This document shows, piece by piece, positions 4,134-34,441 of a stretch of DNA of 41,129 nucleotides. The notes beneath the pieces are model-generated. The model ran no database searches, was not told the origin of the DNA, and was given only the letters and a program-made list of their open reading frames with translations. The stretch is from Escherichia phage vB_EcoS_P1338. The stretch lies in the sequence record PP882707.1; one strand, written 5' to 3'. The first letter of the stretch is position 1; each line of letters opens with the position of its first letter. The position numbers and the translations under genes are program-made.

Positions 4134-6845
4134 TTAATCAGCGTAAAGCATTAAGAACATAATAAGCTCTTCATAACGGATTCCATACCGTACACCGGCT
4201 GGTTTGGTTACTACAACCCTTTCTAGCGTTTCCGGGTTAATGTTTACTTCAGTAGATTCTTCCCATACATCCTTACACCAGAATGCATAATCCTCTGGAT
4301 TAAGTCCATGTTTAGTAAGAATAGAGCCGACCGTTTGAGCACCAACACCGAAGTGAATACGTGCAGATGCTCCCCCCTTAAGTTCTATAGCGTCAGTAAA
4401 CTTGTAGCGAATAATATTCTTACGAATTTCATTAGCCGCATCTCTTTCCGCACTCTCATTCACTGCTGGGGTTTTTTTCTTCAGTGTTTCATCGGAAGTA
4501 ACAATGGTGCTTGAAGCAGCATAAACAGCACTCCACCTGTGGCCTGCATACCCCAGCACTGTAGAGTTATCGGCAGCAGGTAAAATAGCATTATACCCTT
4601 CAATAATGAGGTCACCATTAGGGCTACCAGAAAACGATTTACCATCATAACTAGTAAGGGTGATTCCCTTAGTGCCCTCAGTAGTTGTTAACATAATACC
4701 AGCATTGGTAGCACCCAAGAGCTGAATATCACTATTATCATTACGCAAATCCTGCACAGGTGCTTCAAGTACAGTTGACGTGAATTTCCATTTCGTATCA
4801 GAAAAAAGTTCGACCGGTTGCACGTCATCCTTCTGGTACATCATGGCTTTAACACCGGAAGTTTTACGTCTTACACCGATGGCGTTTGGTTGTGAGCCAG
4901 ACCAGTTAGATGAGAAGGTAAATCCATCAAATTCCACTACAGACTCATAAGGATTGCTGGTATCGTTATTGATTGGTTCTGTAATAAAAATCCATCCCCA
5001 GTCGAAATAGTTATTATAAGTCCCTACGTTAGCATCTATCTGATACGCACGGGTGCACACCTCCCCATAGTAACCGTAGAATCTCAGGTTCCCGGCAACT
5101 TGTGAGTCTGAGCTTACGGTTTTAACCACACGCACACCACACGGTACATCTGCTGGTCCAGTTGTTTTGGTTATATTCTCACAAGAACCACCAAACACAC
5201 GAAGTGAGTCCGTGCTTTCAATCCAGAACGCACAGTTTCCCGTTACGTGAATTGGGTTGTAAATAGTGATTCTGGTGTTGTTGTTGTCGCCTGAAACACT
5301 CCGGTTGAATCTAAACCCGCAGTCAACGTTTTCAAATACTGGATTTTTTATGGTGTGATAATATGCAGCACTATTAGCCCCAAAAACTGTTGGTCCCGGT
5401 TGCAGTAACACCCCTACAGAGACGTCTGTCGCTTTTGGGTTGTTTAGCTGACAAAACTGTTGCGATACACGTGCAGTAGTTTGTGTGAGGTCTTCCGGGC
5501 TTATTGCGTATGCCACTACTTTTGTGAAACCATCTGGATTTATTACCGCAGGGTTAGTTACGATGCAGAAATCATGGCTCATTCTTAAGCATGTGATGCC
5601 AGAAGCTCCCGCTACGATTGTTGTTCCGGTGAAATCAATATACCTTGTAGACGTAACATCCTGCGTATACGAGCCATCGAATTTCATTACAAGACTTTGT
5701 GTTATGCGATATCTCGCACCTACTCTTCCTGTTAATTTACCAAACGGCACAATCTCCAACCACGACAATGCCGCCAGCATCGCGGAGGTATCATTATTTA
5801 TCCCGTCGCCAATAGCACCGAACTCTTCAAATGACTTTACTGTCGTAGCCCGATGAGCAATCTGGTCAATTGTTGCACCATGCTTTGTTAGATCAGTTCT
5901 AATAGACGCATCACCAACACTAACCCACTTCCCTAATCCAATCCCACCGGAAGTTTCAGGAGTTGAACCAGCAGGGATGTTCTTTGGAAGCGTACCATCC
6001 CAGCGGTAATACTCACCCTCCTCTTCCCACAGTAGTACCTCGTTCCAGGTTATAACGTTGAAGCCTTTCTCGAAGGAGCGACGGGTAACATATCCAATTC
6101 GAGCAGATGCCTTGATACTCTCAGCGATTCGTCGTGCTTCATCCTCGCTATCCTTAGCGTTGCCAGCATAGCTACCAGCAGATGCTGCATATTGTCCAGA
6201 AGTATTCTTGAACTGCTCGGCTTCATTCCGGAATTCATTAGCCTCATCGCGCCATTGCTTTGCGTTCGTAGCGTGGGTGCTGGACTCGTTCTTAAAGCCC
6301 TCCGCTTTATTTCTGAAAGTCTCAGCCTCATTGCGGAACTGTAGGGCCTCATTACGTGCCTGCCATGAGTTCTGGTTCATGGTCTTAAGTTGACCAAACG
6401 GAACAGCGTCTAGGTCATCCACGGCGTTCGCTAGGTTCACGATACGACGACCACGTGCATCCAAGTGACCATCATTATTGACCCCAATGGTATCCGCAGT
6501 TAGGTCTCGTGCTTCTTCAGCAACGTGAAGCGTTTGAATCTGTGCAATGTTCAGGTCATATGCGCGAAGGATTGAGCCATCAGCAAAGTCAACCAGACGG
6601 TCTGTCGCGGAGGTGAAACGACGAATCTCAATGGAGTAATATCCATCAGCAGCCGTCCATGCACGAGTTGTAGTGATTTGTGTCTTAGTGGTGAACCGAT
6701 AGTCCTGATTTAGAACCAGTTCCTTACGGTCTTTACCAATTAGAGTTACCGTCACAAACTTACGCGCTAAGTATTCAAAGGTGATTGCAAAGTCCACAGC
6801 ACCTGTTAGCGGATAAGTCATTACGGTACGAATTTTAAGAGCCAT
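4134..6845 (-). CDS. gp17: tail fiber / tailspike: T7 gp17-like N-terminal anchor, beta-helix depolymerase-like central domain, C-terminal intramolecular chaperone-like domain
   Basis: 903 aa; first ~200 aa align with remembered T7 gp17 (FEYLARKF, RLVDFADGSILRAYDLN, VNNDGHLDARGRRIVNLANAVDD); from ~aa 335 FEEFGAIGDGINNDTSAMLAAL (pectate-lyase-type motif); near aa 784 SDETLKKK resembling the Ser-Lys autocleavage motif of tailspike C-terminal chaperones. Confidence 0.9.
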   Translation of the reverse strand: MALKIRTVMTYPLTGAVDFAITFEYLARKFVTVTLIGKDRKELVLNQDYRFTTKTQITTTRAWTAADGYYSIEIRRFTSATDRLVDFADGSILRAYDLNIAQIQTLHVAEEARDLTADTIGVNNDGHLDARGRRIVNLANAVDDLDAVPFGQLKTMNQNSWQARNEALQFRNEAETFRNKAEGFKNESSTHATNAKQWRDEANEFRNEAEQFKNTSGQYAASAGSYAGNAKDSEDEARRIAESIKASARIGYVTRRSFEKGFNVITWNEVLLWEEEGEYYRWDGTLPKNIPAGSTPETSGGIGLGKWVSVGDASIRTDLTKHGATIDQIAHRATTVKSFEEFGAIGDGINNDTSAMLAALSWLEIVPFGKLTGRVGARYRITQSLVMKFDGSYTQDVTSTRYIDFTGTTIVAGASGITCLRMSHDFCIVTNPAVINPDGFTKVVAYAISPEDLTQTTARVSQQFCQLNNPKATDVSVGVLLQPGPTVFGANSAAYYHTIKNPVFENVDCGFRFNRSVSGDNNNTRITIYNPIHVTGNCAFWIESTDSLRVFGGSCENITKTTGPADVPCGVRVVKTVSSDSQVAGNLRFYGYYGEVCTRAYQIDANVGTYNNYFDWGWIFITEPINNDTSNPYESVVEFDGFTFSSNWSGSQPNAIGVRRKTSGVKAMMYQKDDVQPVELFSDTKWKFTSTVLEAPVQDLRNDNSDIQLLGATNAGIMLTTTEGTKGITLTSYDGKSFSGSPNGDLIIEGYNAILPAADNSTVLGYAGHRWSAVYAASSTIVTSDETLKKKTPAVNESAERDAANEIRKNIIRYKFTDAIELKGGASARIHFGVGAQTVGSILTKHGLNPEDYAFWCKDVWEESTEVNINPETLERVVVTKPAGVRYGIRYEELIMFLMLYAD

Positions 6846-6890
6846 AATGTACCTCCTTAGTTGGGTATAATAAAGGGAAGCTGTGTGAGC

Positions 6891-6913
6891 CTTCCCAATA
6901 GTGAGTCGTATTG
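6891..6913 (-). promoter_or_regulatory. T7-type promoter upstream of gene 17 (phi17)
   Basis: minus strand CAATACGACTCACTATTGGGAAG, 1 nt after the gene 16 stop. Confidence 0.8.
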
Positions 6914-6914
6914 T

Positions 6915-9900
6915 TTACTTCTTGTCAGCCTTAATGTGAACACCGTTGGCCTCATAGAACTTAATGAGCATCTGCTGAGAGATTGGGTCGTTAGGAATCA
7001 TCTCTCGGTGGGCATTCATCAAGCCAGTCATCATCTCACGCTCGGTCACTTTGTTAGGAGCCATAAGGACACCATAAGCATTTCGACCAGCAGCAAGAGT
7101 GGCACCAGCGAAACCAAGAGCAGGAATCTGTTCACCAATAGCGCCCATAATGGAATCACCCATGTCACGAGAAGTTACCGCCTTATTGCGTTCACGCTTG
7201 TCATCACCTTTCGGTAGAATCGTAGAGCGAACCATAAGACCTTGGTCGTAACCCGCAGCACCCATAGCGAAGTTAGCGATACTCAGAGGCGACCCAAGGT
7301 GTGAACTTCGGGAGGCCGCTGCATAGGCAATCATCTTCGGGTCGAGAGCTTTCTTCAAGTAATCCTTCTGTTGCTCTTTAGGAAGACCAGCAGATTTCAA
7401 GTGAGCCTGTGCCACGTAGTAGGAACCGGCAAGGCCACCAGAGATAGCATAGGTCAGAGCCATGTCCATAGCGCGATGGTTCTTAAAGGCTTCGTTGCCA
7501 GAGCGGATAAACTTAGAGTTCATCGACTTGATGACAAACGATTTAAACTGAAGGACTAACTTAGCGGTAGCGCCAAACGCATGGGAATCCTGTAAGGAAA
7601 CCTTATGAGGTCGGAGCATCGTCTCATCAGCAACCTTGTCAGCCAATCGCCATAAGTCCATAGCACGAGGGTCATTAGCCAGCTTACGCTTGTCCTTAAA
7701 TGTGAACTTACCGTCTTCCCCACGGGTAACGTTCTCACGGATGAGAGCCTGAATGCCTTCCCACTGTTCCTTAGAGATACTCGCAGACTTCAGCATGTCA
7801 CCTTTAATCCACTTGTTGGCACCCTTGCCAGTAATAGCATGAGTTACCACATCACCCATCACGCCCTGCCGGGCCATGTCCAGAAGGTAGTTTGACGTAC
7901 CATTGAGGAACTTGGTCAGAGGTGAGCGAGCCGCCAGTTCTTGAGTTGTGTGCTTAATAGAACCAACAACCTTAGCTGCAACATCAGGTGTATCAGTTGA
8001 CTCACGGAGTCGCTGAATGATGTCTTGACGTGTCGGTCTGATTAAGTCATCAAACTCTTTACCGAACACCATAGAGTGTAGTTCCTTAAGTTCCTTACCA
8101 GAGACTGGCTTGTTGCGGAACGCTAAGTCACGCAGTACCGGAATGCCATGCAGCATCGCACGGGTGTTACCCTTCGACAACATACCGGAGATTTCGGTTA
8201 GGTTCTGCAAGCCCATATATGCGTTCTTCGTAAAGAAGGACATATCGGACAGGGCGCGAACCATAGTGTCACCTACAGTATCCTGATTACGTCGAGCACG
8301 ACCAGTGAGAATCTTAACGGTATCCTTAAGTGCTTCCACTTCACCTTTCATCGTGCCCTTCCCTTCTGACTTCTTATCGAGAGCCATGATGGAATCCTTC
8401 AGTTCAGCAGTGGTCTTCCCTGTGCCACCCATGATAGCAATGTCACCATCAACGCGGCGGTCATATGCTGGCATCACATGCTTCATATCGAAGTCACGGA
8501 GGTCATTCACAGAGAACTGTTGTCCGTTAGGGAGCGTTACAGGCATGTCAGAATCGAACAGGTTACGGGCTTCAAGGAACGAGTTGTTCTCAATACCCAC
8601 GAGACCCTCAATGTTATCGTCAATGACACTTGAAGAGTTGAACTCATCTGTCTTCGCAATACCATAAGCCTTATCGCTGGCATGTTTCATCACCATCTCT
8701 TCGGTTACAGCCTTCGGGTCGATGCCCAAGGTCTCCGCTAAGTGCTCATCTACACGAGCCTTAACTTCTGGACGTGAACGGTAAGAGGTCATCCAGCTTG
8801 CAGCGATTGCTTCCTGTAAACCATCAGAGCCACCAAGAGCCTGTGAGTACAACTGCTTGGCTTCCCGTGAGTACACATGAGGAACGTAAGTCCCTTTGTG
8901 ACGACTGTTAGGGAAGATGGAAGTTGCCTTGTTACCGAACATCGACGGGTTCTCCATCATCTCACGCTTGAGGTCAAAGTGTTCCTTCATGATGTCCATC
9001 ACCTTACGCTCTGCCTTGGTCAAGTTAGCCTGAAGTTCAGGACGCTCGATAGCCACAGCAACACGACGATAGATTTCTTGACGGGCACCTTGAGCACCAC
9101 TCTTGAACATGCCCACAGACCACTCAGGGTCAGCCATAGCTTCCTTCATTGCACCATAGAGGTCATTGTAGGTTCGCTGGTTGGTACTGTGAAGTCGCTC
9201 TTTAATGTCGGAGGCAGTGGCCCCAAACTTACCATGTGAGCCAGACTCCATACCTGTAGGTGAGCGCACTAAGTCCTTAGCGAGACCTCGGATTTCAGCG
9301 TGTTCTGAACGTAGAGTTCTCAAGCCGATTTCGCTTAGTCCACGCATAGGCAATCCCCAAGCAGCACGTTCAGGGTCCACTTCAGCGAACTCTCTGGCTG
9401 TCATAGGGTTCGCTAGGTTGGTATCACTAATAATGGAACCATCACGCAGCACTACCGCACCCGGTTCAGTTTCGAGAGGTGCATACTCAACGCCGTTGTG
9501 CTGTGAGAACACTCGGTCTTCACTAGGAGGCATACGACTTGCATCATATCCACCAGTGTTACGGGCAGTCTCACGAGCCTCGAAGCGCATCTGTGTAGCA
9601 GAAAACGGGTTCTCAATCTGTTCAGCACCAGACTTACGGAGACCCGCAGCAACACCATCAGCAACCGCAGTGAGTCCCCCAGCAAGCAGCATACCAGCAA
9701 GAGCAGCTTCCGCATAGTGAGCATGACCACCAGCAATGGATGTGCGCAGACCCTCAGAGGCAACGTTGAGTGCACCAGCTTGAGCACCAACCATCAACGC
9801 CTTGTTCACCAGCTTGAATCCCTTGGCTGTAGTCCCTGCTAGTGGGACGTAGGTCAAAGGGTCCACACCAGCACCAATCAGGCCAGCAGACAGCTTGGCA

Positions 9901-23940: not shown

Positions 23941-24233
23941 TACTTCACCTCACGAATAGTTGCAGGTGCAAACTTAATGCCCTCTCCGTGGTGCTCAATG
24001 CCCATCTCACGGATTTCATTACGAATGCCCTGCTTAACAGCAAAGGCAACAACACCATCGGCACCATGAGTAAGAGCCTGTACGAGTAACTCTTTGTCCT
24101 GTGCACTTACGGACTCACCATCACGAACGCTGCGGGCCAAATCCAAGATGCGTTCCTTAATCATATCTTCAGTCTCAGAGTCAACCTTTACGGTCATTTC
24201 GAATGATACTTTAAAACGTTTAGTAATAGCCAT
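23940..24233 (-). CDS. gp5.5: small protein at the T7 gene 5.5 position (H-NS binding in T7)
   Basis: 97 aa; KRFKVSFEMTVK...PATIREV resembles remembered T7 gp5.5. Confidence 0.8.
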   Translation of the reverse strand: MAITKRFKVSFEMTVKVDSETEDMIKERILDLARSVRDGESVSAQDKELLVQALTHGADGVVAFAVKQGIRNEIREMGIEHHGEGIKFAPATIREVK

Positions 24234-24555
24234 GATATTTCTCCTTTGCTTCTAAGGTGATGACCTTCCGTTCTCGGTTAGTCTTGATTATATGTTCCCT
24301 CTTAGGGATACATTGTAGGTGCTCTATGTTACAGCACCCGCGATTCAGGCATAGATGGTCTATCTCATACCCTTCTGGTATCTTTCCGTGCCTTAACTCC
24401 CACACGAATCTGTGAAACATAAAGGCAAACTTAGTACCCTTTCGGGAAGACCCTATGCTATACCGGAAGTATCCATCTTGGTTCCGCTTATGGGAGACGC
24501 AGACAATACATCCAGTCGGCATAGTGTGAAACCTGAGCGTGGCAACGCCTCCCAT
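24220..24555 (-). CDS. gp5.3: HNH endonuclease at the T7 gene 5.3 position
   Basis: track ORF 24220..24585 trimmed to the ATG preceded by AAGGAGG; motifs CIVCVSH...GYFRY...EIDHLCLNRGCCNIEHL. Confidence 0.85.
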   Translation of the reverse strand: MGGVATLRFHTMPTGCIVCVSHKRNQDGYFRYSIGSSRKGTKFAFMFHRFVWELRHGKIPEGYEIDHLCLNRGCCNIEHLQCIPKREHIIKTNRERKVITLEAKEKYHGYY

Positions 24556-24566
24556 AGTATACCTCC

Positions 24567-26681
24567 TTAGTGACATACCGCCCAATTCGGACCCATCTTT
24601 CCTTCAGTATCTAACTGACACCGGAAGTTAAAGTGGTCGCCTACCCAACGCATAGCCTGTTGAGATACTTCGATTACAACTTTGGCAATCTCTTCTGTAC
24701 GGCAAGCAAGCTGTTGCTCATCATGAATCCATCCCATAAGGCAGAAGTCACCATCCCATCCGTGTTTGTAGCCCATCTCAAGGAGCATCTCTTCTGTCTC
24801 AACAATCCACAGTTTACAAATCAGAGCACCAGCAGACTGCAACAAGGTGTTCAACGCAGCGTGAGGACTACGGACGTGTACTTTACGACCATCCAAGCCA
24901 CGAACCCAACGGCGCTTCCAAGTTACTTTCTGTTCGCCACCAACCCACTTGGAGTCCTTGACGAGTGTCCCTGTGATTGCTTCACGTAACGCAGCGATAG
25001 CCGGAGTTTGCTCAAGGAAGTTCTTGATGAGTCGCTTACCATCTTCGGCAGTGCCACCAACAATCTGTCCAATCTTCGCAGCACCAGCACCATAGAGGAA
25101 CCCATAGATAAACGTCTTAGCATTATCACGAGTAGGCAGACCAGCAGCCAATTGGTTCTTCGTATGGATGTCACCAGTGAGGATAGTCTCAACGTACTCA
25201 CCCTCATCATAACGATACATGAAGTGGCCCAAGCAACGTAGCTCAAGGCCGGACGCATCCACACCAACTTGAATCCAAGGGTCTGGCTTACCGTCTTTCA
25301 TGTTGTGCTCGGCACCGAAAGCAGCACGGCAAGGTTCACCATAAGCAGCACGGATTGAAGGCACCTGTGCCACGTTAGGGAAACTATGGGTTGCACGACC
25401 AGTTACCGCACCGTTCGGGTTAACGCTTCCGTGAATACGACCATCGTCTCCAATCATTCGGAGCCATCCGTTATCACCTTCAGCAACCTGACCAATACGC
25501 TTCTGAATCATAAGGTATTCTTTAATTAACTCAATGCAACGTTGTGCATCAGGGTCGTCTACCTTAACGTGCTCTAAGACCTCATCGTCTACCTTTGGTG
25601 CACCACTAGGAGTGAACTCAACGGGAACCCAGCCAGCCTTGGTGAGAACACGAGTGATGTGGTCTCGGCTCGCAGGGTTAAACACAACGTGCTCAACCGG
25701 AGTATACGGAGCACCCTCAACGTAATCGCGGGTATCCAACTCACACGGTTCTAAGCCTTCACGTTGCTTCTTGTTCTTAGGCTTCTTAAAGATGCCACCC
25801 TGTTTCGGATACTTCACACGAGGATACTTGGTGAGCGGCTTTCCGGTACGAGGATGCCTGAATGCTTCAGTACCGCCCTTAGCGGAGTACCATGAGCCAA
25901 ACGTATTGGTTAACTCTACGAGTAGCTCACCACGTCTGCCAGCGAGTTCTGCGTAGAGATTCTCCAAGGACTTGATGTCAATAGGAAAACCGTTACGTTC
26001 CATCTTAGCTAACAACCATGCAGCATCATGTTCCAGTTTGACAGCCTCAAGGCTACCATTCCAGAAACGGTCTGCTTCTGTGCTTCCAGCGGGTGTCTCG
26101 TTAGGGAAATAGAAAGTGTTACTACACAGTTTCTCAAAGAGTGCCTTGGTGACTACAACGTCTTGAACGTTATATTCCATCATGTCTTCGTTGAAGAACA
26201 GCCACTCCATCCCGTCTTCGTATTCATCACCAGACTCTTCCAGTGACTTCTTAAAGTCGTCCTTGTACTCACCCTTCATTTCACCCAAGCGGTAGCCCCA
26301 TGCTTCCAGAGCGTGAGACCCAAAGCGTTGACCTGGTAGCTTGCCAGCACGAAGCAGACCAGCATCGGTGTCTTTGATGTTAGAGTAAATCAGTCGGGAC
26401 ATCACTAAGGTGTCCAAGACGTTCTCTTTCGGGAACTTAACGTCACGATTAAGAATCAGCTTTGCCAGCTTCTCGATAACCGGAACGTCATACTTGTGCC
26501 CGTTGTGAAACACAATGAGACCACCGCGAGCAACCTCAGCTTCGAGTGCATCAATGTATGCCCCAAAGTCATCAGGTCGATAACGGATGTACTGGTCAGT
26601 TGTGTAGTCGTAAGTCACCGCACAGTGAAATTGACTAACGTTGTGCAGCAACCCGTTTGTTTCGATGTCGGATAGTAACAT
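24567..26681 (-). CDS. gp5: DNA polymerase (family A) with 3'-5' exonuclease domain
   Basis: 704 aa, same length as T7 gp5; conserved blocks recognisable along the whole protein. Confidence 0.98.
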   Translation of the reverse strand: MLLSDIETNGLLHNVSQFHCAVTYDYTTDQYIRYRPDDFGAYIDALEAEVARGGLIVFHNGHKYDVPVIEKLAKLILNRDVKFPKENVLDTLVMSRLIYSNIKDTDAGLLRAGKLPGQRFGSHALEAWGYRLGEMKGEYKDDFKKSLEESGDEYEDGMEWLFFNEDMMEYNVQDVVVTKALFEKLCSNTFYFPNETPAGSTEADRFWNGSLEAVKLEHDAAWLLAKMERNGFPIDIKSLENLYAELAGRRGELLVELTNTFGSWYSAKGGTEAFRHPRTGKPLTKYPRVKYPKQGGIFKKPKNKKQREGLEPCELDTRDYVEGAPYTPVEHVVFNPASRDHITRVLTKAGWVPVEFTPSGAPKVDDEVLEHVKVDDPDAQRCIELIKEYLMIQKRIGQVAEGDNGWLRMIGDDGRIHGSVNPNGAVTGRATHSFPNVAQVPSIRAAYGEPCRAAFGAEHNMKDGKPDPWIQVGVDASGLELRCLGHFMYRYDEGEYVETILTGDIHTKNQLAAGLPTRDNAKTFIYGFLYGAGAAKIGQIVGGTAEDGKRLIKNFLEQTPAIAALREAITGTLVKDSKWVGGEQKVTWKRRWVRGLDGRKVHVRSPHAALNTLLQSAGALICKLWIVETEEMLLEMGYKHGWDGDFCLMGWIHDEQQLACRTEEIAKVVIEVSQQAMRWVGDHFNFRCQLDTEGKMGPNWAVCH

Positions 26682-32156: not shown

Positions 32157-32420
32157 TTAGAACACCTCCTTGATACGCGCAATGACCAGACGGACTTTAG
32201 GGAAACGGGTGACGAGAACCGGAATGAAAGGCCGGGAGCCAGTGGTCGCTTCTTTATATAAGCCAGTCGTAATCACAGCGTGAACACGGGGTGCTAACTC
32301 AATGGTAGAGCCAAGCACTTTAGGGATGACTGCATGTTTCTCAGAGGCCAGAACCGTCGAGCGGTCAGCACCACGAGCCGAAAAGATACCATTAGATTTA
32401 TTGAAGTGAAGTCTTAACAT
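32157..32420 (-). CDS. gp1.6: small protein at the T7 gene 1.6 position
   Basis: track ORF 32157..32435 trimmed to the ATG with GGAGG RBS; MLRLHFNKSNGIFSARGADRSTV resembles remembered T7 gp1.6. Confidence 0.65.
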   Translation of the reverse strand: MLRLHFNKSNGIFSARGADRSTVLASEKHAVIPKVLGSTIELAPRVHAVITTGLYKEATTGSRPFIPVLVTRFPKVRLVIARIKEVF

Positions 32421-32427
32421 TTGTGTG

Positions 32428-32450
32428 TCCTCCATAGGTGAGTCGTATTA
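32428..32450 (-). promoter_or_regulatory. T7-type class II promoter variant (phi1.6-like)
   Basis: minus strand TAATACGACTCACCTATGGAGGA. Confidence 0.6.
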
Positions 32451-32528
32451 GCAATCAGGCCAGCAGTTGTCGTCAATGATAACGAGAGCAAAGGTGGCAG
32501 CAATGATAGCGACGATTAGAAATAGCAT
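32448..32528 (-). CDS. 26-aa hydrophobic peptide at the T7 gene 1.5 position
   Basis: MLFLIVAIIAATFALVIIDDNCWPDC; GGAGG RBS; found by hand between two promoters. Confidence 0.45.
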   Translation of the reverse strand: MLFLIVAIIAATFALVIIDDNCWPDC

Positions 32529-32535
32529 GAGGTTG

Positions 32536-32558
32536 TTCCTCCATAGTGAGTCGTATAG
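32536..32558 (-). promoter_or_regulatory. T7-type class II promoter variant (phi1.5-like)
   Basis: minus strand CTATACGACTCACTATGGAGGAA. Confidence 0.6.
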
Positions 32559-32561
32559 AAA

Positions 32562-32594
32562 CGCAAAAAGGCCAGCCCCGTTAAGGACTGACCA
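32562..32594 (-). terminator. intrinsic terminator (TE-like early terminator)
   Basis: minus strand GGTCAGTCC-TTAACG-GGGCTGGCC followed by TTTTTGCGTTT; 9-bp stem with G-U pairs plus U-tract. Confidence 0.6.
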
Positions 32595-32602
32595 TTAATT
32601 AC

Positions 32603-33097
32603 TTATAGCTCCAATAGAAGTTTGTTGCGCGCTGCTACAGCCTCGTCAAGTGACTTATGATATGAAACATAACGTCTGCCAAACTTCCTAATTGAGACGG
32701 TGTAGAGGTTCCTATCCTGTCTCTTGTTTATATGCTTAAGTCCCAGCTTGTTAGTACAGTAGGTACCTTTGTTCTGGTTATTCTCAGCACTTGTTACCAC
32801 TCTAAGATTCTCTATAAGGTTGTTCTGCTTGTTCCTGTCAATATGGTCTACCTGTAAACCATCTGGTATAGGTCCATTGGTCAGTTCCCACACTACTCGA
32901 TGGACTCTCAAGTGATGGGCCTTTCCTTCCACTCTGACAGTCAAAGTCCAATATCCAGTTTTCTTTAGAGAACCAACAGGCTTACCATCTAGGCGAGAGA
33001 GGCCACTAGGAGCCTCCCTGTTAACCTTAAATCTTTTCGCTACGATTTCCCTCAACCCCTCTGAAGCAGGTGAAGGAGGGATGTCTAAGGCTCCCAT
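32603..33097 (-). CDS. HNH endonuclease with C-terminal AP2-like DNA-binding domain
   Basis: 164 aa; GGAGG RBS; HHLRVHRVVWE...VDHIDRNKQNNLIENLRVVTSAENNQNK (HNH) followed by YTVSIRKFGRRYVSYHKSLDEAVAARNK (AP2-like); start overlaps the last ~70 nt of the ligase gene. Confidence 0.85.
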   Translation of the reverse strand: MGALDIPPSPASEGLREIVAKRFKVNREAPSGLSRLDGKPVGSLKKTGYWTLTVRVEGKAHHLRVHRVVWELTNGPIPDGLQVDHIDRNKQNNLIENLRVVTSAENNQNKGTYCTNKLGLKHINKRQDRNLYTVSIRKFGRRYVSYHKSLDEAVAARNKLLLEL

Positions 33098-34061
33098 CTT
33101 TTGTTTCCTCCATGTAGTTTACTTGGCACTGCCAGCCCTCATAAGGATTGACCCCACCGAGGATATATGTGTCAGTGTTACAGGCTTCCGTGAACTCATC
33201 CATCAACGCTTGGCTGATATTGTTAGCGGAGACTACGCGACCGGACTCTAAGAGAACCTCGAAGCCAATCACTTTGCCTTCATTAGCGAGACCTTTAGTC
33301 CCCCAATTGAGTCCAACGATAATACCGTCAGCTTCATTCTCAGGCTTCATCTTCCACCAGCCAGACTTCTTGCCACGCTTGTAGACTTCCAGCGGGTCTT
33401 TGACGACCAGACCTTCATGACCATCGGCACGGGCTTTCTCGTAGAGTTCCTGAAGTTCTACCATGTCGTAGACTTCCTTGGCTTCAGAGAGTTCCCAAGT
33501 GATTTCCGGGAAGTGTTCACTAAGAACCGGAATGAGGGAACGCACATGCTCTTGCATCAGGAGGGACATAACGCCATACTCTTTGCCTTCTACCATATCG
33601 TGATACGGCATAGCAGCATACAGAACAACCTTAAGTTTCTTAGGGTCTAAGCGGAAGTCTACTTTACTCCCCTTGAGAGGCTCTACTCCACCAATATCAA
33701 ATCCACAATTTGTCTTCTTGAGCCACTTGGTACGCAGTAGGCCAGACCCTGTGTTGAAGTCTACGCCTTTGACCATCAGTTCACCATCCAGCATGAAGCC
33801 ATCAGGGAAAATCCAGCGGTCATCTTTGAGAACATTAGCCCAGCGTTGGTCGAACCCATTAAGGTGCTCAAGCGCGGGGATGGTCTTAGAGACACGGGAC
33901 AGCCACAGGCAGTCAGCCGTATTGTCAACCACGATGTTACCACGCACACCATCATGCTTAGTGTCAGCAATCAGGTAGCCAGCTTTGTCGAGTGCTTTCT
34001 TAATGGCAGACTCAACGTAGGATACAGCTTTAAAAGGGTTAGTCTTGAATGTGATTTCCAT
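33027..34061 (-). CDS. gp1.3: ATP-dependent DNA ligase
   Basis: 344 aa; adenylation motif KHDGVRG; TNPFKAVSYVESAIKKALDKAGYLIA...HEGLVVKDP...GKKSGWWKMKPENEADG matches T7 ligase by recollection. Confidence 0.95.
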   Translation of the reverse strand: MEITFKTNPFKAVSYVESAIKKALDKAGYLIADTKHDGVRGNIVVDNTADCLWLSRVSKTIPALEHLNGFDQRWANVLKDDRWIFPDGFMLDGELMVKGVDFNTGSGLLRTKWLKKTNCGFDIGGVEPLKGSKVDFRLDPKKLKVVLYAAMPYHDMVEGKEYGVMSLLMQEHVRSLIPVLSEHFPEITWELSEAKEVYDMVELQELYEKARADGHEGLVVKDPLEVYKRGKKSGWWKMKPENEADGIIVGLNWGTKGLANEGKVIGFEVLLESGRVVSANNISQALMDEFTEACNTDTYILGGVNPYEGWQCQVNYMEETKDGSLRHPSFTCFRGVEGNRSEKI

Positions 34062-34100
34062 GATGGAACTCCTTTAGTGTGTGTCGGTTATTAAGTAATC

Positions 34101-34150
34101 AAAAGTTAATCACAAAGGCCACCATTAAGATGACCTTTAGTTTAACTCTT
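34101..34150 (-). promoter_or_regulatory. conserved 50-nt hairpin element in the ligase leader, candidate RNase III site (R1.3-like); copy 2 of the 50-bp repeat
   Basis: aaaagttaatcacaaaggccaccattaagatgacctttagtttaactctt, 49/50 identical to 27151..27200. Confidence 0.55.
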
Positions 34151-34171
34151 TCGCAATAGTGAGTCGTATTA
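34149..34171 (-). promoter_or_regulatory. T7-type promoter upstream of the ligase gene (phi1.3-like)
   Basis: minus strand TAATACGACTCACTATTGCGAAA; overlaps the gene 1.2 stop. Confidence 0.75.
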
Positions 34172-34441
34172 CTTCCAGTGCTTCATATCACTGTGAACCT
34201 TGCGGAGCCATTCAGTCTGTGCATTACAGCGAACGTCTTCGTCTGACTGTTCGAAACACTTAGCGGTCAGCATTAAGCCATTCCGTAAGACCACTCGAAG
34301 TGTCTCTCCTGCGACCATTCGTCGCTGTGCGAAGTCCTCATAACGATAAGTCTCAACGACCACATTTGCATCGTGGTCTTCTTTAAGTCTCTCGATAGCG
34401 TCTTTGTATGCCATTAAGTTACCACTGTATAAGCGACCCAT
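34169..34441 (-). CDS. gp1.2: small protein at the T7 gene 1.2 position (dGTPase inhibitor in T7)
   Basis: 90 aa; MGRLYSGNL N-terminus and C-terminal WK as in remembered T7 gp1.2. Confidence 0.85.
   Translation of the reverse strand: MGRLYSGNLMAYKDAIERLKEDHDANVVVETYRYEDFAQRRMVAGETLRVVLRNGLMLTAKCFEQSDEDVRCNAQTEWLRKVHSDMKHWK

Follow-up and report, generated by a model that had tools for sequence, protein, structure and literature searches.

The window analysed here, 41,129 nucleotides of Escherichia phage vB_EcoS_P1338 (PP882707.1), is a T7-like genome shown on its reverse strand, with its genes on the minus strand. Its nearest database genomes are Berlinvirus-type phages, at ~92% identity over ~85% of the first 25 kb. 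An intact gene for an ATP-dependent DNA ligase of 344 amino acids, the homologue of T7 gene 1.3, occupies 33027..34061 (minus strand) and matches the Pfam domains DNA_ligase_A_M (E 8e-26) and DNA_ligase_C (E 2e-40). Into its 3' end runs an open reading frame for a putative homing endonuclease at 32603..33097 (minus strand), 164 amino acids long with an ATG start. The coordinates of the two genes therefore give 71 nt common to both. The open reading frame listing places the endonuclease exactly where an earlier sequence-only reading of this DNA had put it, and that reading's start some 70 nt inside the ligase gene agrees with the measured overlap.

Expression signals flank the endonuclease gene on both sides. 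Its Shine-Dalgarno sequence, GGAGGA at 33106..33111 (minus strand), stands 8 nt before the ATG and is made of the ligase codons Met-Glu-Glu. The early intrinsic terminator TE lies ~10 nt past the endonuclease stop codon, at about 32569..32593 (minus strand), located by terminator scan and folding and homologous to the annotated TE of phage BA14. Its 10-bp GC-rich stem is followed by a T-run (TTTTT), with a folding energy of -19.9 kcal/mol (z = -3.4), and the scan found no other terminator-like site in 32300-34200. The phage RNA-polymerase promoter phi1.5, assigned by homology to the BA14 annotation, sits directly 3' of TE at 32536..32558 (minus strand). Upstream of the ligase gene, a further phage promoter at 34149..34171 (minus strand) matches the T7 consensus with 3 mismatches, where 0 such matches are expected by chance, and takes the same position as phi1.3 in BA14. 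Judged by its sequence, this promoter could drive transcription of both ligase and endonuclease genes by phage RNA polymerase.

This layout agrees with the sequence-only reading on two points and departs from it on a third. An intrinsic terminator had been placed after the gene and the insertion within the early transcription unit, and the gene does lie upstream of the early terminator. The gene had also been said to replace T7 gene 1.4, and this does not hold. T7 gene 1.4 lies between genes 1.3 and 1.5, downstream of TE, and encodes 51 amino acids with no nuclease domain; the T7 map runs from the ligase gene (6475-7554) through TE (7588) and gene 1.4 (7608-7763) to phi1.5. In the present phage the order is ligase gene, endonuclease gene, TE and phi1.5, with gene 1.4 absent between TE and phi1.5. 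Gene 1.4 is equally absent from BA14 and PhiV-1, nearest relatives that lack the endonuclease gene, and only ~10 nt separate their ligase stop from TE. A third such relative, BSP161, has a 60-aa open reading frame in the slot held here by the endonuclease gene, and comparison of this frame with T7 gp1.4 found no similarity.

Results

The endonuclease carries an HNH catalytic core. Pfam HNH_3 (PF13392), the H-N-N type with a beta-beta-alpha-metal fold, covers residues 64-108 (32774..32908, minus strand) at E 5e-21, and its 74.5 bits exceed the cut-off of 24.8. PHROG 99 'HNH endonuclease' gives E 1.7e-41 for residues 27-163, and a match by chance can be dismissed for the HNH domain. Across 14 aligned sequences, H85 and N106 never vary and D84 and N97 are near-invariant (at least 90%), and H66, R67 and L98 also fall among the invariant or near-invariant columns of the homologue alignment. 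Presence and conservation of D84, H85, N97 and N106 thus assign the endonuclease to the H-N-N subtype.

Sequence and structure comparisons converge on the same solved relative. I-HmuI (PDB 1U3E), an HNH homing endonuclease that nicks DNA, is the best by sequence (E 3e-7, endonuclease residues 43-146), and a Foldseek search with the AF2 model of the endonuclease returned I-HmuI (1u3e) as top match at E 1.8e-5, followed by I-PpoI. The model has a mean pLDDT of 84 and shows the beta-beta-alpha-metal fold in strands 81-85 and 98-102 and helix 103-110, at pLDDT about 90. I-HmuI residue numbers were left untransferred to the endonuclease because the HMMER alignment has a gap around the last Asn. The open reading frame and its HNH catalytic residues are intact, and the putative enzyme would either nick its DNA target or break both strands.

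The C-terminal domain, at residues about 119-163 (32609..32743, minus strand), is probably AP2-like and putatively binds DNA. Up to E 10, Pfam AP2 (PF00847, cut-off 33.3 bits) matched neither the whole protein nor the C-terminus taken alone, and relatives of the endonuclease reach only sub-threshold scores of 13-30 bits (15 bits, E 0.027, for gp1.45 of phiYeO3-12). The AF2 model arranges the region as antiparallel strands 123-126, 131-138 and 141-147 followed by helix 150-163, a predicted order that would fit the AP2 topology of three strands and a helix. When the profile of the C-terminal domain was aligned by hhalign with one built from AP2-type domains that are linked to HNH nucleases in phages, the match reached 96% probability (E 4.5e-9, 59 columns), the two sets having been cut from matches to one query and sharing the last HNH residue. 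In the reference AP2-type set, 10 of the 11 members match Pfam AP2 at E below 0.01, and the set remains below the gathering score. Searching PDB sequences with the C-terminal-domain family profile retrieved no AP2 entries, only noise. The Pfam failure, the model topology and the profile-profile match together therefore lead us to call the domain probably AP2-like rather than demonstrated AP2. Of the HNH-AP2 architecture that the sequence-only reading had claimed, the nuclease half is confirmed; the AP2 half is probable, by predicted topology and profile alignment, with no Pfam match.

The 71 shared nucleotides (33027..33097, minus strand) are read in two frames. One gives DGSLRHPSFTCFRGVEGNRSEKI, the C-terminal end of the ligase, and the +1 frame gives MGALDIPPSPASEGLREIVAKRFK, residues 1-24 of the endonuclease. 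In all carrier lineages, though these are only ~42% identical overall, the +1 reading of the ligase tail is SPAS.ELR.I..K[F/Y]K. Non-carriers have an unrelated peptide in this frame, often without an ATG, and T7-type alleles hold a stop codon in it. Endonuclease residues 11-22 are predicted to be helical (AF2, pLDDT 74-94), and residues 1-11 have pLDDT below 50. Before codon 52, an in-frame ATG, GTG or TTG occurs only twice, as the ATG of codon 1 and the TTG of codon 15, and each lies inside the ligase gene. The annotated ATG is thus supported by the conserved +1 peptide together with the confinement of in-frame starts to the ligase gene. A start further downstream was rejected because no in-frame start lies between codon 15 and codon 52.

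It is very improbable that the overlap is an artefact of annotation, with real translation beginning 3' of the ligase stop and the dual coding meaningless. Such a late start would suit the homology to PHROG and I-HmuI, which begins only at residues 27-43, the low pLDDT of residues 1-11, and the gene callers, which give later starts or miss the gene in PVN09, P483, pO111 and the SRR10989975 contig. Yet both starts available before codon 52 fall within the ligase gene, and initiation at codon 52 itself would delete strands that align with I-HmuI. The strong GGAGGA upstream of the ATG, the predicted helix at residues 11-22, and a +1 peptide that is conserved across diverged carriers and absent or stop-interrupted in non-carriers also argue for translation from the annotated ATG.

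The gene recurs at this one site across genera of T7-like phages. Homologues with the same site and the same overlap occur in Teetrevirus phiYeO3-12, Przondovirus KP32, Teseptimavirus pO111, PVN09 and JacobBurckhardt, and Berlinvirus P483; SEqdws-315 and D226 form a further Berlinvirus lineage with the gene here. A start 71 nt inside the ligase gene is common to phiYeO3-12 1.45, KP32 gp9 and the genes of JacobBurckhardt, PVN09, P483, pO111 and SEqdws-315. The nearest Berlinvirus relatives BA14, PhiV-1 and BSP161 lack the gene. Among 50,697 phage records, only pO111 (86%), PVN09 (79.5%), P483 (75%) and JacobBurckhardt (62%) exceed 60% identity to the endonuclease, and by this measure its sub-lineage is rare. 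A search of 5.8 billion sequences found no identical protein and a best full-length match of 86%, and the metagenomic contigs with the best matches keep the order ligase gene, HNH gene, gene 1.6.

Identity along the locus marks out a cassette, comprising the ligase tail and the endonuclease gene, at 32603..33110 (minus strand), as delimited by sliding identity and BLAST breakpoints. Over the ligase body (34061-33200), the gene-less BA14, PhiV-1 and BSP161 are 96-97% identical to the present phage; they have no match to the cassette (33110-32603) and are 88-89% identical downstream of it (32602-32300). The Teseptimavirus phages pO111 and PVN09 are both 70% identical in the ligase body and rise to 83% and 82% in the cassette, with matches of only 21 and 29 nt downstream. 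P483, a fellow Berlinvirus, is 77% identical in the ligase body, 73% in the cassette and 95% downstream. Such discordance between ligase body and cassette is what the horizontal gain of a ~500-nt cassette would leave behind, and we read it in this way.

One edge of the cassette is exact and the other approximate. On the right, the endonuclease TAA (32605..32603) aligns with the ligase TAA of PhiV-1, and TE comes next in both phages. The left edge falls at about 33110-33190, where the ligase gene is rich in indels and mosaic in general. Comparing ligase 3' ends of carriers and gene-less relatives, as the sequence-only reading had proposed, thus defines the right junction to the stop codon and the left only to this interval. 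The insertion amounts to a net 424 nt. Junctions were taken from BLAST breakpoints and tail-anchored alignments; a global MAFFT alignment against BA14 was discarded for misplacing the large gap, and the 0% that the sliding-identity profile shows for BA14 and PhiV-1 is an artefact of such misalignment.

Purely vertical descent, in which the gene would be ancestral in T7-like phages and lost by many deletions with no horizontal movement, seems quite unlikely. A shared site and a shared overlap in at least four genera would be expected under such descent, and deletion derivatives do occur. However, the cassette is nearer to the Teseptimavirus copies than to that of P483, the order of the ligase bodies is reversed, and the flanks are near-identical to those of relatives without the gene.

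Possession of the gene goes with a variant ligase tail. The survey covered about 89 ligase loci: IMG/VR supplied 78, GenBank phages 10, and the present phage one. Of these, 13 carry the gene, 3 keep a remnant of it, and the non-carriers contribute 73 unique tails. The tail SF[T/S/E][C/M]FRG...EK[I/V] is present in 13/13 carriers and 3/3 remnants. The 73 distinct non-carrier tails mostly read SFVMFRG...KM or SFDKWRG...KM, and none of them has SFTCFRG, the type of the present phage. A few non-carrier tails are intermediates, L057, L062 and L076 among them. Decay products occupy the same site: L039 retains an 88-aa stump, L059 and L067 retain 70-aa stumps, and L062 has a carrier-type distal tail with the endonuclease gene absent. 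This linkage and the conserved +1 peptide together make the last about 24-25 or more ligase codons part of the mobile unit.

Nine nucleotides distinguish 12 unique carrier tails from the 73 unique tails of non-carriers: 33101, 33100, 33084, 33075, 33071, 33068, 33045, 33040 and 33030. Four of them (33084, 33075, 33071 and 33068) cluster at 33068..33084 (minus strand), in the codons R-H-P-S-F-[VM to TC]. The nine positions are candidate determinants of recognition and self-immunity, and may equally reflect just the coding needs of the second frame.

Discussion

The gene is probably a free-standing homing endonuclease gene of the HNH_3 (H-N-N) class, belonging to the phiYeO3-12 gene 1.45 group and mobile now or in the recent past. 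We favor this reading because the HNH core is related to I-HmuI, the distribution is patchy, the cassette is mosaic, and the linkage to the ligase tail is strict. Hallmarks of homing recur at the locus. The gene is sporadic among otherwise near-identical genomes, sits at a common insertion site in divergent genomes with a phylogeny discordant with its flanks, is linked to a tail polymorphism, and has degenerate and deleted copies that trace a cycle of gain, decay and loss. The mobile nature proposed from sequence alone is consistent with this patchy, mosaic distribution across T7-like phages; uniform presence without scars, the pattern named as contrary to it, is not what the survey found, given the remnants L039, L059, L067 and L062.

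We propose the following route for homing at the ligase gene. As the last gene before TE, the endonuclease gene would share a transcript with the ligase gene, made early by host RNA polymerase and, from phi1.3, by the phage enzyme. Translation would begin at the ATG served by GGAGGA inside the ligase codons. On co-infection with a gene-less relative, the enzyme would nick or cut that relative's ligase 3' end or TE region. Repair by recombination, with the carrier genome as template, would then transfer the endonuclease gene and, with it, the variant tail (about 24-25 or more ligase codons). The carrier genome would probably resist its own enzyme through the variant tail SFTCFRG...EKI, as against SFVMFRG...KM. 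In this route, cleavage activity, the target site, the choice between nick and double-strand break, and immunity are inferred. In the literature searched, we found no published study of a gp1.45-type protein or of a homing endonuclease beside a T7-like ligase gene.

A role beyond self-propagation is possible, though we hold it doubtful. The nuclease may have been domesticated as a weapon, retained for harming co-infecting phages (by interference or marker exclusion) or for degrading host DNA rather than being purely selfish. The intact open reading frame and catalytic residues speak for such a role, as does a location in the early region among other host-takeover genes. There are published precedents: phage homing endonucleases act in inter-phage competition (PMC11620839) and sit at genetic-exchange boundaries (PMC10448857 / 10.1101/2023.03.23.533998). 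Weighing on the other side, most close relatives thrive without the gene, remnants and deletions are common, and cassette-like mosaicism is what plain homing predicts. A weapon role is nonetheless compatible with homing as the main explanation.

That the gene is an inactive relic, once mobile and now encoding a non-functional or non-cutting protein on its way to loss, is unlikely. Decay after fixation is expected of homing endonuclease genes, truncated copies stand at the same site in related phages, and the present protein has no identical counterpart among the sequences searched. Against decay in this phage, the open reading frame is full length, no conserved HNH residue is missing, its start codon and ribosome-binding site are intact, the predicted fold is confident, and the overlap peptide in the endonuclease frame is conserved.

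We suggest tentatively, under the homing interpretation, that the overlap forms an obligatory three-way module, in which the conserved ligase segment LRHPSF..FRG near the C-terminus, the conserved N-terminal helix of the endonuclease in the +1 frame, and the self-protecting substitutions are all written in the same bases. Were this so, part of the ligase gene would be rewritten at each homing event, with VM becoming TC and the terminal M becoming I, and across genera the nuclease gene and the ligase allele would evolve together as a unit. As a corollary, the recognition site would be the near-invariant non-carrier sequence CTGCGTCACCC(A/G)TCGTTCG, with candidate cleavage of the gene-less allele predicted near CTGCGTCACCCATCGTTCGTTATG. 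The strict linkage of gene and tail thus yields a testable prediction of both enzyme target and immunity determinants. We found no description, in the literature searched, of an endonuclease gene linked to a rewritten, dual-coding ligase tail; the linkage is a modest, testable addition to the known picture.

The closest described counterpart is gene 1.45 of Yersinia phage phiYeO3-12 (NP_052076, 'HNH endonuclease'), whose product is 42% identical over 98% of the query length. Gene 1.45 and gp9 of Klebsiella phage KP32 hold the slot directly after gene 1.3 and overlap the ligase gene by 71 nt from the same ligase codon. Members of the group share a length of 157-169 amino acids, an HNH_3 domain, a similar C-terminal domain and the ligase tail SFTCFRG...EK[I/V]. 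The two records differ in one respect: TE is annotated inside gene 1.45 of phiYeO3-12, whereas it follows the gene in the present phage.

I-HmuI offers the nearest structural parallel. Its N-terminal beta-sheet region and H-N-N catalytic motif align with the endonuclease. Unlike the free-standing gene described here, I-HmuI is encoded in a group I intron, in Bacillus phage SPO1; it carries a different C-terminal DNA-binding module, where that of the endonuclease is predicted to be AP2-like, and overall identity is 25%. By analogy, the relation suggests a monomeric, metal-dependent, site-specific strand-cutting enzyme.

A comparable architecture, in which an AP2-type DNA-binding domain comes after an H-N-N nuclease, appears in the HNN-AP2 endonucleases of Xanthomonas phages Xp10, OP1 and Xop411, and also of T5, T1 and RB phages. 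Free-standing HNN-AP2 or HNH-AP2 endonucleases are a recognized phage class with a patchy distribution and degenerate copies (PMC2248197). Genes of this class in the Xoo phages are described as scattered and as having no conserved flanks, while the present family keeps to one precise site and overlaps its neighbor; the AP2 domain of the present endonuclease is also too diverged for Pfam.

Free-standing endonucleases of T4-like phages supply the behavioral parallel. Seg proteins are GIY-YIG enzymes, a nuclease family different from HNH. Their genes and those of the Mob enzymes lie between conserved genes, and the mosaic pattern at the present locus is the footprint expected of such elements, although homing was shown experimentally for those elements and is a proposal for the present family. 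Seg and Mob endonucleases cut a neighboring conserved gene in phages without the element and spread by co-conversion of flanking markers, in what is termed 'intronless homing' (PMC2988022).

T7-like phages themselves are known to vary in such genes. Variable homing endonuclease genes have been described as gp5.3 and gp3.8 (PMC4925675), and Hafnia phage Ca shows a 397-bp indel of an endonuclease gene (PMC8861465). With the HNN-AP2 class, the variability of T7-like phages and gene 1.45 all on record, what is new in the present gene is the allele; the kind of element and the site were already known. In sequence, the allele is at most 86-89% identical to anything recorded. We regard the gene as an ordinary mobile element, and the 71 shared bases as a tidy case of two-protein coding.

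The gene also marks a recombination hotspot at the junction of ligase gene and TE, which accounts for local mosaicism among T7-like genera. In mixed infections, or in engineered phage cocktails, such a hotspot could skew the inheritance of markers. If confirmed, the locus would offer a compact natural example of constraint on overlapping genes linked to a selfish element, and might add a site-specific nicking enzyme to those known. The main consequence is for annotation: the endonuclease gene is best treated as a mobile element and kept apart from the conserved genes of T7, and the deposited records of the relatives pO111, SEqdws-315, D226 and P483 miss it or call it wrongly.

Results

Ligase genes at loci lacking the endonuclease gene share a strongly conserved DNA stretch. 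Across 73 distinct gene-less alleles from several genera (surveyed loci L001, L007, L009 and L011-L088), the sequence CTGCGTCACCC(A/G)TCGTTCG is nearly invariant at the ligase codons equivalent to window 33066-33090. Third codon positions are near-invariant as well, with major-allele frequencies of 0.8-0.93 at several of them, and the conservation exceeds what the protein sequence alone demands. The stretch could be the target of the endonuclease, reflect a codon-usage effect, or have been homogenised by recombination.

The adjoining ligase segment is highly mosaic. Just upstream of the overlap between the two genes, window 33100-33190 (-), which encodes ligase residues about 291-320, is rich in indels: the window reads TEACNTDTYILGGVNPYEGW, and BA14, BSP161, P483 and SEqdws-315 each differ in both sequence and length. 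The left edge of the cassette formed by the ligase tail and the endonuclease gene falls in this segment, which suggests repeated recombination at 33100-33190.

Four IMG/VR contigs capture decay stages of the same element. At L039, the ligase tail typical of carriers, SF[T/S/E][C/M]FRG...EK[I/V], whose +1 frame encodes the endonuclease N-terminus, is followed by a truncated endonuclease stump of 88 aa, and at L059 and L067 the same type of tail precedes a 70-aa stump. L062 keeps the distal part of the carrier-type tail, with a +1 frame reading ...EELRTILKRKF, and its ligase stop is followed directly by the early terminator TE.

The slot between ligase and TE can also hold other genes. Some Berlinviruses carry a different small hypothetical ORF of 60 aa between the ligase stop and TE, as in Salmonella phage BSP161 (NC_048105.1, L007 1865-2047) and the 285P-type loci L011, L013 and L081. 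Comparison of T7 gp1.4 with the BSP161 ORF found no similarity; the site thus accepts several unrelated inserts.

The position of TE relative to the cassette differs among records. A TE-like hairpin lies 3' of the endonuclease gene in the window, pO111, PVN09 and JacobBurckhardt. The phiYeO3-12 record (NC_001271.1, L005 1584-1599) places a putative early terminator TE inside gene 1.45, the annotated counterpart of the endonuclease gene, just past the ligase stop. The cassette may lie on one side of TE in some lineages and on the other side in others, or else the old phiYeO3-12 annotation is doubtful. Coordinates of the 24-nt TE stem in the window differ by one base between the terminator scan (32593..32570) and the sequence ruler (32592..32569).

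Several phages have an endonuclease ORF that is intact at the ligase/TE site but omitted or mis-called in the deposited annotation. No CDS is recorded for the 167-aa ORF of Enterobacter phage vB_SEqdws-315 (OK663600.1, L008 1787-2290) or the 155-aa ORF of D226 (MN080711.1, L010). The pO111 record (OR204652.1, L003) shows just a small ORF on the opposite strand at the site; the endonuclease gene of this phage apparently begins with GTG. In P483 (NC_028822.1, L002 2537-3025) an open frame of 162 aa is annotated as a 63-aa fragment.

The window has a second ORF for an HNH endonuclease (24220-24585, (-)), which is 121 aa long and has a Pfam HNH_3 match (E 8.7e-18) and a weak additional match to zf-His_Me_endon. 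Listed with a TTG start codon, it directly follows the DNA polymerase gene (24567-26681), overlapping its 3' end by 19 nt, and occupies the same position as gp5.3 of phiYeO3-12. It is 28% identical to the ligase-linked endonuclease and is probably another homing endonuclease gene.
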